5,403 nucleotides of DNA from a virus (lineage: Duplodnaviria; Heunggongvirae; Uroviricota; Caudoviricetes): IMG/VR virus record IMGVR_UViG_2693429656_000025; one strand, 5' to 3'. Both the position numbers and the translations under genes were made by a program. Below, piece by piece: positions 1-5,403 of the stretch (its first letter is position 1; each line of letters begins with the position of its first letter). The notes beneath the pieces are model-generated. The model was not told the origin of the DNA and did no database searches. It saw nothing but the letters and a program-made list of their open reading frames with translations.

Positions 1-474
1 ATGTACAGTCCGGTACAAATAGCCAATAAATTCATAACGTTGGGAAACCAACATCATAATCCTCTGACCCACATGCAACTGCAGAAGCTTACTTATATTG
101 CCCATGGTTACTATTTAGCATTAACAGGTAAGCCTTTGCTCAATGAATGTGTCTCCGCGTGGAAGTACGGTCCAGTTATTCCTGGAATGTACGATGCTTT
201 CAAAGACTATGGGAATAAACCTGTTACGAATGTAGCAGTAGCTCCTTTTGGTGGCATCGTTACTATGGATCCGCAAGCAGAGAGCATTATCGGGGCTGTT
301 TATAAGTTTTACGGCTCGAAAAATGGAATTGAGTTATCAACTCTAACTCATATGCCAGGTACGCCTTGGTCACAAGCTTATAATGGTATTGGCTCGTCAA
401 TCATCTCAAATGATGCGATCAAGGCTTATTATCATGATTTATTGAATAACCGACAGCAATGTCAGGGCCTCTGA
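1..474 (+). CDS. Panacea-domain (DUF4065 / COG3600 GepA-like) protein; candidate PanA-type antitoxin
   Basis: 157-aa ORF beginning at window position 1 with ATG (true start could lie upstream of the window). The translation carries the pattern I associate with DUF4065/Panacea: 'MQLQKLTYIAHGYYLALTGKPLLNECVSAWKYGPVIPGMYDAFKDYG'. Stop TGA at 472-474, 22 nt before the next gene. Family assignment is by motif recall, not a search. Confidence 0.75.
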   Translation: MYSPVQIANKFITLGNQHHNPLTHMQLQKLTYIAHGYYLALTGKPLLNECVSAWKYGPVIPGMYDAFKDYGNKPVTNVAVAPFGGIVTMDPQAESIIGAVYKFYGSKNGIELSTLTHMPGTPWSQAYNGIGSSIISNDAIKAYYHDLLNNRQQCQGL

Positions 475-485
475 AAAAGTAATAT

Positions 486-490
486 TCAGG
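486..490 (+). promoter_or_regulatory. Ribosome-binding site (AGGGA) for the 497..1045 CDS
   Basis: AGGGA lies 6 nt upstream of the ATG at 497. Confidence 0.45.
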
Positions 491-496
491 GATGAC

Positions 497-1045
497 ATGT
501 CTCACAATTCAGATATCTATAAACTTATCGGAGCGGCCGCAGGTGTTGAAAATGGTCGCTCTGAAGCATCCTTAAACTCTACTGACAGTCAAGAACAGGT
601 TTTTAAATCTGCATTTGAGCCGTCTAATCATGAGAGCGACGATGATTCTTCTTCAGAAAATAAAGCTATTCTGGAGGCAGAAGAGTTTGGTTCTAATACT
701 GGTGCATTGCATGAGTTTATGCAGCAGAACAGAATGGACAGTCTTCAAGCTCAGCTTGATATGCTCAAATCACAAGTACGGGATAAGATAGCTGACGCAA
801 CTGGTAAAGAAATAGACAATGAGCTTCGGACAAAAATGGCCTCATTCACGGTTTGGTTTATGTCGTGTTGGTGCTTATTCGTTGTCGCAATGTTTACATC
901 GTTTCTTATTGCACATGAAGGAAAGCCTCCAGTTGAAGCGATCGTTGCATTACTAGGTACAAGTACAATTAGTATTGTTGGTTTGGTTGGTTTCGTTGTT
1001 AGTGGATTGTTCAAATCAAGAAAAGATAGTGATAAAGAAAAATAA
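497..1045 (+). CDS. Small membrane protein: acidic Ser/Asp-rich N-terminus, predicted coiled coil, two C-terminal transmembrane helices; candidate toxin/effector partner of the upstream Panacea protein
   Basis: 182-aa ORF with ATG at 497 and RBS AGGGA upstream. Low-complexity acidic stretch 'SNHESDDDSSSENKAILEAEEF', heptad-like segment 'LQAQLDMLKSQVRDKIADATGKEIDNELRTKMAS', then two hydrophobic spans 'FTVWFMSCWCLFVVAMFTSFLIAH' and 'IVALLGTSTISIVGLVGFVVSGLF' separated by 'EGKPPVEA', and a basic tail 'KSRKDSDKEK'. Stop TAA at 1043-1045. No family recognised. Confidence 0.6.
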   Translation: MSHNSDIYKLIGAAAGVENGRSEASLNSTDSQEQVFKSAFEPSNHESDDDSSSENKAILEAEEFGSNTGALHEFMQQNRMDSLQAQLDMLKSQVRDKIADATGKEIDNELRTKMASFTVWFMSCWCLFVVAMFTSFLIAHEGKPPVEAIVALLGTSTISIVGLVGFVVSGLFKSRKDSDKEK

Positions 1046-1064
1046 CCCGTACATATACGGGTTA
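1043..1064. terminator. Bidirectional intrinsic terminator between convergent genes
   Basis: Inverted repeat AACCCGTA / TACGGGTT (1044-1051 and 1056-1063) with a 4-nt loop CATA. T-rich sequence follows on the plus strand (TCCATAGTTTTAGTTT...). On the minus strand the hairpin is followed by TTATTTTTCTTTATC. It sits between the TAA of the 497..1045 gene and the stop of the minus-strand 1079..1351 gene. Confidence 0.5.
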
Positions 1065-1078
1065 TCCATAGTTTTAGT

Positions 1079-1351
1079 TTAGTTATATTTTTGTTTTTCC
1101 GTTCTGACTTTTTCCCACTCAGCACGCCCTTCTTCTCGCCTTTTGTCTATGTATTCCGCAAGATCCTGAATATTGATGCAACGTTTTGCTTTTTGTGATG
1201 TGCCGATGCGATATGTTGGAACGGGCAACTTACAAGCGTTTGCTTTTGCTTCTGCCGTGGCTGGACTCATGCCAAAGTACTTTTGGCTAACTGCTGAGAG
1301 TTCAATGTTTGGGGTATTGAATTCAGCCATCAGTAAAAACAAGGTGTTCAT
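1079..1351 (-). CDS. PrtN-family / excisionase-like small DNA-binding protein (putative recombination directionality factor)
   Basis: The ORF track gives 1079..1378 from a GTG. An in-frame ATG at 1351 has a strong RBS (GGAGAAAA, about 5 nt upstream) and yields a 90-aa product starting 'MNTLFLLMAEF...', which resembles the N-terminus of pyocin-activator PrtN-like prophage proteins as I recall them. Position at the distal end of the operon fits an Xis-like role. Start choice and function are not certain. Confidence 0.55.
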   Translation of the reverse strand: MNTLFLLMAEFNTPNIELSAVSQKYFGMSPATAEAKANACKLPVPTYRIGTSQKAKRCINIQDLAEYIDKRREEGRAEWEKVRTEKQKYN

Positions 1352-1387
1352 AATTTTCTCCATCAAAACCGGCTGCACCCGGGAAAA

Positions 1388-1959
1388 TCATAATTCTGTG
1401 CTGGTGGCAGGAATTAATTTCTGCCAGATAGCGGAAACATATTTTGCCTGATGACGGGCATCAGCCAGGGCGTTGTGCCGTTCGCCATCGAAAGGCATGT
1501 CCATTTTGGGGTCGAATCCGATGGAACGCCCAAGCGTAACGATCGTGCGTACATCGTGGTCATTCCAGTACGCCCACGGGCAGATTTGTCCTGCTCGCTC
1601 GTAAGCTCCACGTAAAATTACGTTGTCGAAGGTGGCCCCGTTACCCCAGACTTTTAAATATTTTATATTGTCTGTATGCTGATTAATGAAATGACTCAAT
1701 TCAGAGAGTGCATCGCTGATCGATAAAGTATCATCAATACAGATTGCAGTTCGTGCTTCAGGGCTCTGTTTCAACCACCACAGGAGGTATCGCCGTCAGG
1801 TGTAGCTCCTTGCTTCATAGCACTGTCTAGGCTGACAACCGCATAGAATTCTTGTCCGATGTCACCGGTTTCTGGGGTAAAGAACACCGCGCCAATGGAA
1901 ACGATCGGTGCATCCTTATTTTTCCCCATCGTCTCAAGGTCGATCATTAAGTTGTTCAT
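1388..1959 (-). pseudogene. DnaQ-like 3'-5' exonuclease (DEDD fold) interrupted by a frameshift; two ORF fragments
   Basis: N-terminal fragment (1771..1959, ATG at 1957-1959) carries an Exo I-like motif 'MIDLETMG' and ends '...PDGDTSCGG*'. C-terminal fragment (1388..1774) carries Exo II/III-like motifs 'WGNGATFDNVIL' and 'HNALADARHQAKY'. The two frames overlap only between about 1773 and 1798. Shifting frame there gives a continuous '...PDGDT..LWWLKQSPEAR...'. This is a single-base indel or a sequencing error. RBS AGAGGTGA lies upstream of the ATG at 1959. Confidence 0.7.
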
Positions 1960-2768
1960 CACTTCACCTCTTGTGATGGTTTTGCTGCAAAATACTCGAT
2001 ACCTTTATCCCAGATAGATTTTATGGTCGACCACGTGACTGGCACTTTAATTTCAATACGTCCGCTCCCGTCACAGGTATCGCAATCATCATCGCCAAAG
2101 CATTCCAGGCAGCTTATAAACGTAGTTTCTGAAAATTCACCGGATAGCACCCCCTTAACGCCGTTCTCGGCTGTTAGTCTCTTCGGCACCATAACCCAAC
2201 CATCCGGAGTTACCGGAGAGTTGCCAGACAGTGCGTTCTGCAATCGTTCCAGCTTAACGTATTCCTGAACCCTGTTTCCGTCGCACGCCTGAAGCCATTG
2301 CACAGCCTTTTGCGCATCAGTGTGAAAGGTACAAGTGCGACCGTCATCAAATTGCATTTCGTAGAGGTCAGCAACCTGTTTAAACTGCGTTTGTGGCAAC
2401 TTGTAAGCCTGGCTTGCAGGTACGGCACCATAGAGCATGGCAGCTCGGCAGGCGTTCCAGCCTTCATCAAAACCGACTATGCCATTATTTAAAGATGGAC
2501 GAGCATCTGGCACCACCGGCACTGGCTTGGCTATATATAGCGGCTGAACATACCAGCCCTTCGATAACCAACTGTCAGCAATGTTTTTACTCCTCGTTAT
2601 TGCCGGAATACCTAAGCCATTGTCTGAATGCAGCCATGCCACCGGATCCGCTTCCAGCGATGCCAATGCAATTTCATAAGCCCGGCGCTCAATATTGTCT
2701 CGCACATCTAGGCTGCTTATGCGCTCTTTGATTTCTTTAATCAGTTCTTTGTCGGTAAAAGTGGTCAT
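1959..2768 (-). CDS. Prophage hypothetical protein, possibly ead/Ea22-like, with C-terminal CxxC-x5-CxxC zinc-knuckle-like motif
   Basis: 269-aa ORF with ATG at 2768 overlapping the upstream stop (ATGA). Its stop TGA overlaps the exonuclease ATG (TGATG at 1957-1961). Contains 'CLECFGDDDCDTCDGSGR' near the C-terminus. The Ea22-like assignment is tentative recall of '...PVAW...QPLY...' segments. Confidence 0.55.
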   Translation of the reverse strand: MTTFTDKELIKEIKERISSLDVRDNIERRAYEIALASLEADPVAWLHSDNGLGIPAITRSKNIADSWLSKGWYVQPLYIAKPVPVVPDARPSLNNGIVGFDEGWNACRAAMLYGAVPASQAYKLPQTQFKQVADLYEMQFDDGRTCTFHTDAQKAVQWLQACDGNRVQEYVKLERLQNALSGNSPVTPDGWVMVPKRLTAENGVKGVLSGEFSETTFISCLECFGDDDCDTCDGSGRIEIKVPVTWSTIKSIWDKGIEYFAAKPSQEVK

Positions 2769-3241
2769 AATTGGTCATTCTCCGCTTTGGCTGTGCGTTC
2801 GGCTTTTTCGCGTTTATGGCTCTCATAAAACCATCGGTGAAGCTCCGTTAACTCTTTATCAATAGGCTCATATTCACGGTCAAAATATGCCTGAGCATTT
2901 TTTTCATCTTCGCTAGGTAATTCGCCTGGTCCAAACAAAGTGTTATAAATCCACATCAGTGCATTTTCTGCATTACCCGTTTCTCTCCATTCAATAATTG
3001 CAGCCTGCATAACCAGAATGTTTTTGCCAAAGAACAGATCGAGTTCTTTAAATCGCTTCCGAATATATTCGTTCTCGTCTTCAAGAGCTGCGAGGCGTTT
3101 GTCTTTGCCTTGCATTTCGTCCAGCATCGCTTTTGCGGAAATATAAAGTTCCTGCTTTTTACGATCAGCAGGATCGCTGTAATGGTCCTGCATGTACTGA
3201 AATTCTTCATGCAGTGCCTGATAGTTAATTTCGGTTGTCAT
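2765..3241 (-). CDS. Prophage hypothetical protein (158 aa), charged and probably alpha-helical
   Basis: ORF with ATG at 3241 overlapping the stop of the upstream PP-loop gene (ATGA at 3238-3241). Its stop overlaps the next start (ATGA at 2765-2768). No family recognised. Codon usage is continuous with its neighbours. Confidence 0.55.
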   Translation of the reverse strand: MTTEINYQALHEEFQYMQDHYSDPADRKKQELYISAKAMLDEMQGKDKRLAALEDENEYIRKRFKELDLFFGKNILVMQAAIIEWRETGNAENALMWIYNTLFGPGELPSEDEKNAQAYFDREYEPIDKELTELHRWFYESHKREKAERTAKAENDQL

Positions 3242-4116
3242 GCCACTATCTCTTCGAATTTCAACTCCAATTGATCACCCCAGATTTCACATGATTCAGG
3301 ACACGAACCAGTATCAAATCGCCTGGCCTGCACCATTGCCTGATACAAATTTCTGTAGTCGCTGTCTGCATACATTCTGGCAATCCCGTCAAGCGTCAGG
3401 TGACCACGGTACATAACGTCTTTACCTGTCCCGCGATGACCATCTCTGACGTGTTTACCCGTAACCAGTTCATTAAAAACTCGCATCAGACCAGGTTCGT
3501 CTTTACATGCAAGCCCTAGCTTTTGCGTTGACTTTTTGATGCAAAAAACACAGTTCCCTAGGTGCTCTGGGATTTGCAAATCAAAAGGTTGTTTACGCCA
3601 CCACCGGATAACATCCGACTTATCAAAATCAGACAGCTCGGCGAGATACCTGACGCCCGATTTCGGTTTCAGTCTGCGGGGTTCGTCTGCACGAATACCC
3701 AGCCATGTGATGTAATTCCCTCTCCCGAAATGGTCATCGCAGTATTTGGTGAAGGGGACGAGTTTTAATCTGTCAGTGCAGAACGCGCCGCCGATGTATG
3801 GCGTGCCATATTTTTTAACCATATCCATAAACGGCTTGAGCACCGGCATTCGTGTTTGAATATCCTTTGGTTCCCATACCGTATAACCATTTGGCTGCCC
3901 AAGCTCTGGATTTATATCGACCTGCAACACAGTTAGCGGTATGCCCCAGAACTTCACAACCTCCCGAATAAAGCGGTATGTCAGCGGATGTTCGCAACCG
4001 GTATCCATAAAGATGTAGCAGACGTTATTGCCAGCCTTTCTTTGTTCTTCCATCAGGTGAACAAGATATGCAGATGTTCTCCCGCCAGAAAAACTAACTA
4101 CATGAGTTATGCACAT
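3238..4116 (-). CDS. Phosphoadenosine phosphosulfate (PAPS) reductase family protein / PP-loop ATP pyrophosphatase
   Basis: 292-aa ORF. N-terminal 'HVVSFSGGRTSAYL' matches the PP-loop SGGxxS signature of the PAPS reductase / DndC-like superfamily. The ATG at 4114-4116 overlaps the 3' end of the upstream HD gene by 10 nt. Confidence 0.8.
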   Translation of the reverse strand: MCITHVVSFSGGRTSAYLVHLMEEQRKAGNNVCYIFMDTGCEHPLTYRFIREVVKFWGIPLTVLQVDINPELGQPNGYTVWEPKDIQTRMPVLKPFMDMVKKYGTPYIGGAFCTDRLKLVPFTKYCDDHFGRGNYITWLGIRADEPRRLKPKSGVRYLAELSDFDKSDVIRWWRKQPFDLQIPEHLGNCVFCIKKSTQKLGLACKDEPGLMRVFNELVTGKHVRDGHRGTGKDVMYRGHLTLDGIARMYADSDYRNLYQAMVQARRFDTGSCPESCEIWGDQLELKFEEIVA

Positions 4117-4643
4117 TTGCGTAATTCCGATAACTCGTTGAAGCGTTCTATAAACATCCCGTAGGCATGGCCCGGTGCCAGTGGAATCACGTTGAACATC
4201 TCTGTTGCCGGGATGCCTTCCAGTACAGGCCAGAAAGAGCCATCATCAAGCCCGAGATCGCGGCGTTCGGTTGCCAGCATGATGAGATCGGCATATTTCA
4301 CTGGCGTGCTCATAACAGGAGGTAACCCGTATTTCTCACGGATTACGGCATCTATTTTTTCTTCCATCCGTTTATAGTCAGGAAGAAGGCGTTTCAGTGG
4401 AGCGGGAATATCCTGGCAATACGCTTCTGTTGCATCATGCATTAACGCTTCAAAAGCAAATTCCTGCGGCACCAGCTGGCTGCAAAGCACCGCATGTTGG
4501 GCGACACTGTAGAAGTGAGAAAGATGACCTGCAAAGCGGCAGATATTTGAAAGGGAAACCGCGATATCGTTAATCACGATGTCGTCTTTATTTATCCTGT
4601 CATAATAAAAATGCTTCCCGGAAAAAGTTTTAATAAATGACAT
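4107..4643 (-). CDS. yfdR: HD-domain phosphohydrolase (YfbR/YfdR-like 5'-deoxynucleotidase family)
   Basis: The ORF track starts at GTG 4670, but the ATG at 4641-4643 has RBS GGAGA 7 nt upstream and gives 'MSFIKTFSGKHFYY...', 178 aa, the size I recall for CPS-53 YfdR. HD signature: 'VAQHAV' (His) and 'MHDATEAY' (HD...E). Stop TAA at 4107-4109. Confidence 0.8.
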   Translation of the reverse strand: MSFIKTFSGKHFYYDRINKDDIVINDIAVSLSNICRFAGHLSHFYSVAQHAVLCSQLVPQEFAFEALMHDATEAYCQDIPAPLKRLLPDYKRMEEKIDAVIREKYGLPPVMSTPVKYADLIMLATERRDLGLDDGSFWPVLEGIPATEMFNVIPLAPGHAYGMFIERFNELSELRKCA

Positions 4644-4648
4644 TTTGT

Positions 4649-4653
4649 TCTCC
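4649..4653 (-). promoter_or_regulatory. Ribosome-binding site (GGAGA) for the HD phosphohydrolase gene
   Basis: The minus strand reads GTGGAGAACAAAATG; GGAGA is 7 nt upstream of the ATG at 4643. Confidence 0.45.
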
Positions 4654-4736
4654 ACGTATATGCGCTGCACCGCGCTGAGTTTGGGTAAAAGGAAGCCCTC
4701 ACCATCCGGTGATTATTGAGTTAATTACGTTTCCAT

Positions 4737-4758
4737 AAATGCCCCCGCAGGGGCATTT
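4737..4758 (-). terminator. Perfect hairpin, putative intrinsic terminator or attenuator downstream of the yfdQ-like gene
   Basis: AAATGCCCC-CGCA-GGGGCATTT: 9-bp GC-rich stem with a 4-nt loop, 13 nt downstream of the TGA at 4771-4773 of the minus-strand gene. On the minus strand the stem is followed by ATTTAT, a weak U-tract. Confidence 0.45.
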
Positions 4759-4770
4759 GCAGTAATGAAA

Positions 4771-5403
4771 TCAGGCGGTGAAAGTACCAATAAAGGTTTC
4801 TACTTTGCTGTCTTTGAATTTCTCAACAAGCAGATCACGAAATTCGTTAGCCATATCTTCCTGCACCGCTTCCAGCTGAATAATGCGCAGAACCAGTACA
4901 GGACGATCGCCAGTGATAATGCTGAGGCGTAATTTAAACGGACGTTCTTTCAGACCTTCAAACGGAACGCATTTAAATTCAAATGCCACTGGCATAATGT
5001 CTTTGGTCTTCGCTTCGACAGATTCCATCAGGGAGCGTTTGCCGCTGAAGTCATTATCTTCAAAATCAGCGGTCTGGTTTGCTTCAATCGTGATTTTACG
5101 GACTGCCGCAGCCGCTTTTGTTGCCTGAATAGCGTCACCATTAGCATCAAAGCCCACAAGGTAGTCGGCCCAGTCTTCAATCCATTCTGCCAGTGACTTC
5201 TGGGAGTTACGCTCGCCGTTAACAGACAACAGGGCAGAGAACGGTGCTGTCTTTTTCAGTTTGAGAGTGGCGGTGTTATCTGCGTGACCTGGTTCATCAA
5301 TAGTACCCAGGTTAAGTACACTGACGGCACGCATATTATCAGCATCGATAAAGCAGCGGGTGCCTTCATCTGCAAGATCTTTAGAATAACGGGTAAAGTC
5401 ATC
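4771..5403 (-). CDS. yfdQ: Prophage protein, 3' portion only (reading frame open to the window edge); YfdQ-like (DUF2303) by context
   Basis: The reading frame stays open from 5403 down to the TGA at 4771-4773; the track's Met at 5334 is internal, with in-frame upstream sequence '...[23 protein letters not shown]'. It lies immediately upstream of the YfdR-like gene, as yfdQ does in CPS-53. The DUF2303 assignment is contextual, not motif-based. Confidence 0.6.

Follow-up and report, generated by a model that had tools for sequence, protein, structure and literature searches.

One of the nine PanAT toxin–antitoxin systems validated by Kurata et al. (2022; PNAS; PMC8832971), listed in their Table 1, is the E. 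coli STEC O31 pair, in which the antitoxin WP_000287252.1 is matched with the toxin WP_000019185.1, whose mode of action is given as "Membrane." The supplement of the same paper assigns this toxin to cluster T3 and the antitoxin to the "noNTD" type, lists the antitoxin gene ahead of the toxin gene with an intergenic distance of 22, and gives the pair the verdict "TA." This toxin, PanT Esc. col., brings transcription, translation, and replication to a halt together; depolarization measured with DiSC3(5) and increased SYTOX Green uptake were read as formation of large pores (Kurata et al. 2022). WP_000287252.1 neutralizes the toxin in co-expression, ClpXP and Lon are dispensable for neutralization by PanA, and the GPV motif, the signature of the Panacea domain, is critical for it; PanA:PanT complexes were recovered by pull-down for five other pairs, the E. 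coli pair not being among them (Kurata et al. 2022).

Among membrane PanATs, an interface model has been put to the test solely for the Bartonella choladocola (apis) pair, PanT(D11/T12)–PanA: the Panacea domain is modeled, with support from mutations, to contact the disordered N-terminus and the short helix ahead of the TM segments. As in the E. coli pair, the antitoxin is a Panacea domain standing alone and the toxin is a pore-forming membrane protein whose N-terminus is charged, but this toxin forms a separate cluster whose homology to T3 is suspected, and an interface for the E. coli pair is drawn from it by analogy. Caulobacter SocAB, a type VI toxin–antitoxin system, likewise has a Panacea-domain antitoxin.

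Membrane-directed toxins and prophage cargo from outside the Panacea family offer further points of comparison. In the TisB/IstR-1 and DinQ/AgrB systems of E. coli, a promoter with a LexA box drives production of a small inner-membrane toxin that dissipates the membrane potential; both belong to type I, their antitoxins being RNAs and their toxins approximately 30 aa long. Lambda RexB acts through loss of membrane potential. RexAB and the P2 old and tin genes, which are prophage-encoded exclusion genes, resemble panAT in being prophage cargo expressed from the lysogen, with no sequence relationship to it, and Rex consists of an activator-sensor and a channel, whereas panAT consists of an inhibitor and a pore toxin. 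The P2 old and tin genes occupy the P2 hotspot in which PanAT relatives occur (Rousset et al. 2022), and the LexA box of istR2 is among those listed in PMC3009722.

Here, we describe a panAT pair at the start of a 5,403-nt stretch of viral DNA (the window). A sequence-only reading of the window had proposed that its first two ORFs form an uncharacterized PanA/PanT-type toxin–antitoxin or phage-exclusion pair carried as prophage cargo. Our follow-up indicates that the locus is very probably best explained as a validated PanAT operon, a membrane-pore toxin with its PanA antidote, carried in a self-contained cassette with its own, probably SOS-controlled, promoter.

Identity of the gene pair

The features of the pair, with positions in the window, are as follows.

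1 to 474, plus strand: ORF1, panA; 157 aa, standalone Panacea-domain antitoxin with no N-terminal HTH
169 to 177, plus strand: codons for panA G57-P58-V59, the GPV signature of the Panacea domain, read from the translation WKYGPVIPG
475 to 496, plus strand: panA–panT spacer of 22 nt, AAAAGTAATATTCAGGGATGAC, with a weak Shine-Dalgarno-like AGGGA at 488 to 492
497 to 1045, plus strand: ORF2, panT; 182-aa membrane toxin, allele WP_021563277.1, toxin cluster T3 (Kurata et al. 2022)
836 to 916, plus strand: panT TM1, residues 114 to 140, a Kyte-Doolittle segment preceded by the invariant G..IDNxLR..MA motif
929 to 1012, plus strand: panT TM2, residues 145 to 172, ALLGTSTISIVGLVGFVVSGLFK, rich in small residues
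1040 to 1067, both strands: hairpin resembling a terminator, between panT and xis, which are convergent; right edge of the cassette

Positions 1–1400 of the window are 100% identical to several E. coli chromosomes, and these chromosomal loci annotate ORF1 as WP_000287252.1 and ORF2 as WP_021563277.1. ORF1 is identical to the validated antitoxin, and the gene order, the 22-nt spacer, and the toxin architecture, a charged N-terminus followed by C-terminal TM helices as in cluster T3, are also those of the STEC O31 pair. The toxin that was tested is a different allele, WP_000019185.1, with which the window PanT probably shares at least approximately 93% identity, a bound taken from allele diversity (E. 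coli alleles differ by up to 6.6%) rather than from a direct alignment. The window pair is very probably an already known, experimentally tested E. coli PanAT toxin–antitoxin pair. The proposal of a PanA/PanT-type system was correct, but the pair is not uncharacterized, given that its antitoxin appears in Table 1 of the very paper that the sequence-only reading had cited; similarly, the membrane partner said to match no recognized family belongs to toxin cluster T3, with a measured mode of action. Both genes are also already annotated as PanA and PanT in a 2025 phage record, PhiR47_1, from ECOR13.

Allelic variation among 48 E. coli-type loci falls mainly on the toxin. These loci carry 14 PanT alleles, all of 182 aa and 93.4–100% identical to that of the window, and three PanA alleles, with the window allele present at 41 of the 48. 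The validated PanA allele accompanies nine of the 14 PanT alleles. Spacer length is nearly constant, at 22 nt in 42 loci and 21 nt in the remaining six.

Profile searches bear out the assignment of ORF1 as a DUF4065/Panacea-like protein: it matches Pfam PF13274 (SocA_Panacea) with an E-value of 5.9e-18 and 66.3 bits (cut-off 25.7) over model positions 1–112 of 113. For ORF2, no Pfam or NCBIfam family scored above its cut-off, and it matched the phage family phrog_13343, whose function is unknown, along its entire length (E 1.9e-113). Weak matches of PanT to DUF2207_C (16.3 bits, cut-off 33), 7tm_6 (13.3 bits, cut-off 25.8), and an NCBIfam exosortase model were rejected as hydrophobic-segment noise. 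PDB sequence searches returned no match for PanA or PanT.

Conservation of the predicted membrane region in PanT

Most of what had been read from the ORF2 translation stood up to closer analysis. The gene begins 22 nt after ORF1 and encodes 182 aa, as described. Its acidic, disordered N-terminus is apparent both in composition (14 D/E against four K/R in residues 1–70) and in an AF2 model, in which pLDDT falls below 50 at residues 16–56 and residues 16–52 are disordered. The two C-terminal TM helices correspond to hydrophobic segments at residues 114–140 and 145–172 (Kyte-Doolittle, 19-residue window, maximum 2.22), and the model agrees, with a long helix spanning residues 53–139 and running into TM1, a short turn, and a second helix at 146–177 that contains TM2. 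Two details hold in part. A ribosome-binding motif is present upstream of ORF2, but it is weak, consisting of just AGGGA placed 4 nt 5' of the ATG; and the supposed coiled coil coincides with the long predicted helix, which has a modest heptad pattern that falls short of demonstrating a coiled coil. The AlphaFold model itself was built from 22 homologs and was used for topology only (pLDDT 59, pTM 0.28), its membrane part being the most confident (pLDDT approximately 78–85 at TM1).

The pairing of the two genes is conserved well beyond E. coli. In a survey of 52 viral contigs together with Enterobacter, Providencia, Serratia, and E. coli loci, conducted with HMMs built for this analysis, PanA lies directly ahead of PanT in all of the approximately 60 loci with upstream sequence, P2-like phages included. 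PanT homologs with 40–66% identity in these four groups each have a Panacea gene of 153–157 aa directly upstream on the same strand. Within PanT, conservation is uneven. Across 22 homologs that are 31–95% identical overall, TM2 is nearly invariant, and the 14 E. coli alleles contain no substitution in it. The motif G..IDNxLR..MA..T..FM..WC.FV, which runs into TM1, is almost invariant in the family alignment, with G103, I106, D107, N108, L110, R111, A115, T118, F121, M122, W125, C126, F128, and V129 invariant, and the acidic N-terminus is hypervariable. This pattern fits a protein with a conserved, self-assembling membrane core and a fast-evolving cytoplasmic part.

These observations can be set beside the published phenotypes in a simple scheme. 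PanT would enter the inner membrane through its conserved two-helix hairpin and, when free, would depolarize and permeabilize the membrane by forming large pores, as published work on a sister allele describes. Its antidote PanA, which consists of a Panacea domain alone, would neutralize it with no need for ClpXP or Lon, again as the literature describes. Since the Bartonella Panacea domain contacts the N-terminus and pre-TM helix of its toxin, the cytoplasmic part of PanT is the expected site of contact here, and PanA most likely binds the N-terminal and juxtamembrane region directly.

A cargo cassette in a dusA-integrated prophage

The pair is flanked by a 105-nt dusA fragment that ends 304 nt before panA, with zur, dinF, and lexA beyond it. 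The suggestion that the pair is prophage cargo is borne out by this context, in which the cassette lies within a lambdoid prophage integrated in dusA, close to its end. The dataset of Kurata et al. (2022) had flagged the locus "NotPhage," whereas it lies inside this prophage, which also exists as isolated phages. The PhiR47_1 record has the integrase and a dinI-like gene at the opposite end from panAT, and the circular gene order is therefore int, attP, panA, panT, and then the convergent xis/early-left operon.

Both edges of the cargo can be placed by comparison. The hairpin between panT and xis reads as a terminator on both strands (positions 9040–9067 of chromosomal locus L002, equivalent to 1040–1067 of the window), and phages that lack panAT match the window only from approximately position 1089, so that the cassette ends at the hairpin. 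In phage mEp460, the same slot is filled by two unrelated genes, and left-hand homology stops directly after the att core. Judged from where the panAT-less phages begin to match and from what fills the slot in mEp460, panAT is a self-contained cassette of approximately 1.3 kb in a variable cargo slot between attP and xis. Of 5,426 complete E. coli genomes, 79 contain panAT, in each case chromosomally. Neither gene occurs by itself, every genome with any match having both; the co-conservation expected of a true pair thus holds within E. coli as well as across genera. The backbone is common, with some part of window positions 1046–5403 matched in 3,679 of the same 5,426 genomes.

Anti-phage defense is a possible role for such cargo, one that we rank first among the roles considered but hold to be less likely than not, and the evidence for it is contextual. 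As an abortive infection or superinfection exclusion system, which is compatible with a toxin–antitoxin mechanism, the pair would respond to an incoming phage or its SOS signal by freeing PanT, and collapse of the membrane potential would block the invader. That the cargo lies at a prophage end and has a promoter and terminator to itself is consistent with this role, as is the greater polymorphism of the toxin compared with the antitoxin (14 vs 3 alleles). In P2-like prophages, several relatives occupy the gpA–portal interval, beside a reverse transcriptase or DUF4145; that interval is a documented anti-phage hotspot (Rousset et al. 2022), though location in a hotspot is circumstantial. Weighing against defense, neither PanA nor PanT significantly matches any defense-system model in PADLOC-DB v2, and we found no phage assay of the pair in the Panacea papers.

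An upstream promoter with candidate LexA boxes

The window opens exactly at the panA ATG, as many IMG/VR contigs also do, which leaves the promoter region outside it. We therefore read the panA leader in an identical chromosomal locus, where 245 nt of cassette sequence lie upstream of the gene. Located at positions 7757–8000 of L002, equivalent to 64–307 of PhiR47_1, this leader contains a perfect sigma-70 promoter, TTGACA-16-TATAAT (12/12), and a strong Shine-Dalgarno sequence, GGAGG, before panA. Also in the leader is a 24-codon ORF that lacks a Shine-Dalgarno sequence. Beginning 17 nt after the -10 element is a candidate SOS box (box 1), CTGTGTATATGTACAG, which is two positions off consensus; the leader sites agree with the SOS box pattern taCTGtatatatataCAGta. 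The placement of box 1 relative to the perfect promoter is compatible with blocking of transcription.

Two approaches were used to evaluate these sites, a matrix-free palindrome test and a weight matrix made from 17 published E. coli LexA boxes (PMC3009722, Table 4) with lexA left out as a control; the results agree. The strict palindrome CTGT-N8-ACAG occurs twice in the 17.4-kb locus (0.17 expected), once in the CTGTGTATATGTACAG site of the panA leader and once as the box of the host lexA gene. With the 17-box matrix, the leader sites score 16.2, 20.0, and 14.7 bits, and the independent host lexA controls score 19.1 and 18.1 bits; when each published box was scored with itself left out of the matrix, 16 of the 17 fell between 13.7 and 27.7 bits, with polB at 6.2.

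The association extends to the wider family. Among 30 non-duplicate family loci, which share ancestry and are not phylogenetically independent, a strict palindrome lies within 1 kb upstream of panA in 26 and a box of at least 17 bits in 28, in approximately 17 sequence versions. The other 145 kb of these loci contain no strict-palindrome match and a single weak matrix match (12.3 bits), and shuffled upstream regions yield 0.45 loci with a box. An Enterobacter locus (L015) retains an 11/12 promoter with an intact box approximately 20 nt later despite diverged flanks, a layout like that of the window cassette, and in another locus (L072) the box overlaps the -10 element. The association of SOS boxes with panAT is strong and apparently unreported, and it suggests SOS control: neither LexA nor SOS is mentioned in the Panacea papers of Kurata et al. 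(2022) and Ernits et al. (2023), the literature searched contained no report of a LexA box–panAT association and no instance of the box sequence, and DUF4065 and LexA are co-mentioned in one paper that draws no connection between them.

The sites could also be nonfunctional, arising by chance or belonging to tum/dinI operons next to which panAT has inserted at hotspots, and we consider this somewhat unlikely. In its favor, many P2-like loci have the box ahead of a 62-aa ORF and dinI, with a separate, box-free promoter nearer to panA; SOS control there would therefore need read-through, and the adjacency of the box in these dinI-containing loci may reflect the neighboring SOS operon. Common descent of the loci, noted above, and the lack of any box upstream in the Providencia loci point the same way. 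In the lambdoid context, on the other hand, the boxes lie inside the cassette rather than in the backbone, as the same slot in mEp460, filled with other cargo, has no box; the SOS elements therefore belong to the cassette there, and an SOS promoter as a feature of the backbone slot was rejected for this context. The promoter-then-box geometry also recurs in three contexts, and the enrichment upstream of panA is extreme against a near-zero background.

LexA control is our preferred interpretation. The cassette comes with a perfect sigma-70 promoter, candidate LexA boxes a short way past its -10 element, and a terminator, and it is likely that LexA keeps panAT transcription low in the lysogen and that DNA damage lifts this repression as the prophage is induced. 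An external repressor is plausible because PanA has no DNA-binding domain. More broadly, the chances are about even that LexA is the missing transcriptional regulator of the HTH-less PanAT family, keeping the genes silent in the lysogen and allowing a burst of expression upon DNA damage or prophage induction.

Other roles for the pair

Beyond defense, two further roles deserve consideration, both of which we judge improbable. The first is prophage addiction or stabilization, in which loss of the prophage would kill the cell as PanA decayed faster than PanT. This is classic type II toxin–antitoxin logic, and the pair is strictly co-inherited and adjoins the att site and xis. ClpXP and Lon, however, are not needed for neutralization and the lability of PanA is without support; moreover, a LexA-repressed promoter is ill-suited to the steady expression that addiction requires, and the pair is present in 1.5% of genomes, the backbone commonly occurring without it.

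The second is that of an SOS-timed membrane effector of direct use to the phage or host, producing TisB/DinQ-like depolarization and dormancy or serving as an auxiliary lysis or holin-like factor at induction, for which we see a similarly small chance. The likeness to TisB and DinQ lies in a LexA-box promoter, putative in the case of panAT, driving a membrane-depolarizing toxin; consistent with it, the toxin is pore-forming, the cassette promoter has candidate LexA boxes, and dinI and other SOS genes recur beside relatives. The panAT antitoxin, in contrast to the RNAs of those systems, is a protein, translated from the transcript that it shares with the toxin, and PanT is much the larger toxin at 182 aa, with a large cytoplasmic region. 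Co-transcription of the antitoxin ahead of the toxin means that induction alone should not free PanT, and the pair runs toward the early-left operon, at a distance from the lysis genes.

A SocAB-like (type VI) arrangement, in which the Panacea protein would act as a ClpXP adaptor feeding the toxin to the protease, has the Panacea domain and a weak match of 97 bits to the NCBIfam SocA_antitoxin model (NF047745) in its favor, but that score is far under the 190-bit equivalog cut-off, neutralization by PanA is independent of ClpXP and Lon, and the toxin is a membrane protein unrelated to SocB, so that this mechanism is essentially excluded.

Conclusions

In conclusion, the finding rediscovers a published, validated toxin–antitoxin pair, and the identity of the genes is not new. 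What the analysis contributes is a firm placement of the locus, as an exchangeable cassette of cargo genes, in a lambdoid phage that is inducible and integrates at dusA, together with a pattern of conservation, near-invariant in TM2 across genera and variable in the N-terminus and TM1, that points to where the pore assembles and where the antitoxin is recognized. A further, modest contribution is the association with SOS boxes, which bears on the regulation and triggering of PanAT systems. If LexA control is real, panAT would be an SOS-licensed effector, acting in the exclusion of competing phages or in dormancy or lysis brought on by damage, and not a toxin–antitoxin system that is poised constitutively, and it would offer a concrete handle on what controls and triggers the PanAT systems.

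Toxin and antitoxin diversity

Across 48 loci, the toxin was far more polymorphic than its antitoxin, with 14 alleles of PanT (window 497-1045) against three of PanA (window 1-474), and nine of the PanT alleles were found beside one and the same PanA protein. Substitutions among these loci clustered in the PanT N-terminus (residues 3, 28, 35, 37, 47, 61, and 78) and in its transmembrane segment TM1 (residues 120, 124, 130, 131, and 134); TM2 carried none across the 14 alleles. Between panA and panT, P2-like relatives have a GC-rich hairpin and, after it, a T-run; this element stops right at the panT ATG:

L019, 2975-2996: GC-rich hairpin, then T-run
L021, 2973-2995: GC-rich hairpin, then T-run
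L072, 2720-2741: GC-rich hairpin, then T-run

This hairpin could attenuate transcription of the toxin gene or mask the panT ribosome-binding site. No such hairpin is present in the E. coli cassette, where the spacer is 22 nt long.

Window boundary and panA leader

Position 1 of the window is exactly the panA ATG, a start shared by about 20 viral contigs of IMG/VR that have this pair too (among L024-L053), which looks like the product of a prophage-boundary prediction that cuts at a gene start. Such a cut costs the window 300 nt: the promoter and the predicted LexA boxes are lost, as is the true att end. In the leader of the identical E. coli chromosomal locus L002, positions 7953-7970 hold a palindrome, AACAGTGATGATACTGTT, which lies 47-30 nt ahead of window position 1. 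When E. coli is compared with Enterobacter, it ranks among the best-conserved leader stretches, and the third LexA-like site overlaps its right arm. It could form a hairpin in the 5'-UTR or act as a second operator. The 10-mer ATGTACAGTC also occurs twice, at L002 7870-7879 and at window 1-10. The former copy forms the right half of LexA box 1 and opens a 24-codon ORF that has no Shine-Dalgarno sequence in the leader, and the latter constitutes the first 10 nt of panA; the repeat probably arises by chance, the codons for M-Y-S happening to read like an SOS half-site.

LexA-like boxes are found elsewhere in these phages. A very strong match to the LexA matrix, TACTGTTTTTACATACAGTA (26 bits), is located inside or near the repressor gene of phage PhiR47_1, at L001 6512-6531; the cI annotation (6048-6740) spans the site. 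The integrase-adjacent dinI genes of PhiR47_1 and mEp460 are preceded by paired boxes scoring 21-23 bits.

Other genes of the window

The following features lie on the minus strand:

1388-1774 and 1771-1962, minus strand: exonuclease gene, split by a 1-nt deletion at 1785/1786
1959-2768, minus strand: Ea22/DUF551-like early-left protein, 269 aa

Compared with L002, where the 3'-5' exonuclease gene is intact (573 nt), the deletion leaves the window copy in two frames, and each half still gives a match to the Rv2179c-like exonuclease domain; the split means that the gene is a pseudogene, unless it stems from a sequencing error. The 269-aa protein matches only phage families of unknown function and ends in a cysteine-rich motif, CLECFGDDDCDTCDGSG, similar to a DnaJ-type zinc finger.

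Phage carriers and the cargo slot

The supplementary dataset of Kurata et al. 2022 (PMC8832971) marks the validated E. coli pair as 'NotPhage' (row GCF_000281775.1), whereas here the same pair is part of a prophage integrated in dusA. Sequenced phages have it as well: PhiR47_1, 1720a-02, and the Stx2k phage phiSTEC1575. In mEp460, the attP-to-xis slot (L081 1531-2434) holds two rightward genes of unknown function, gp23 and gp24 (177 aa and 57 aa), which are unrelated to panAT and occupy the same position. The slot is thus one at which phages of this group swap cargo.
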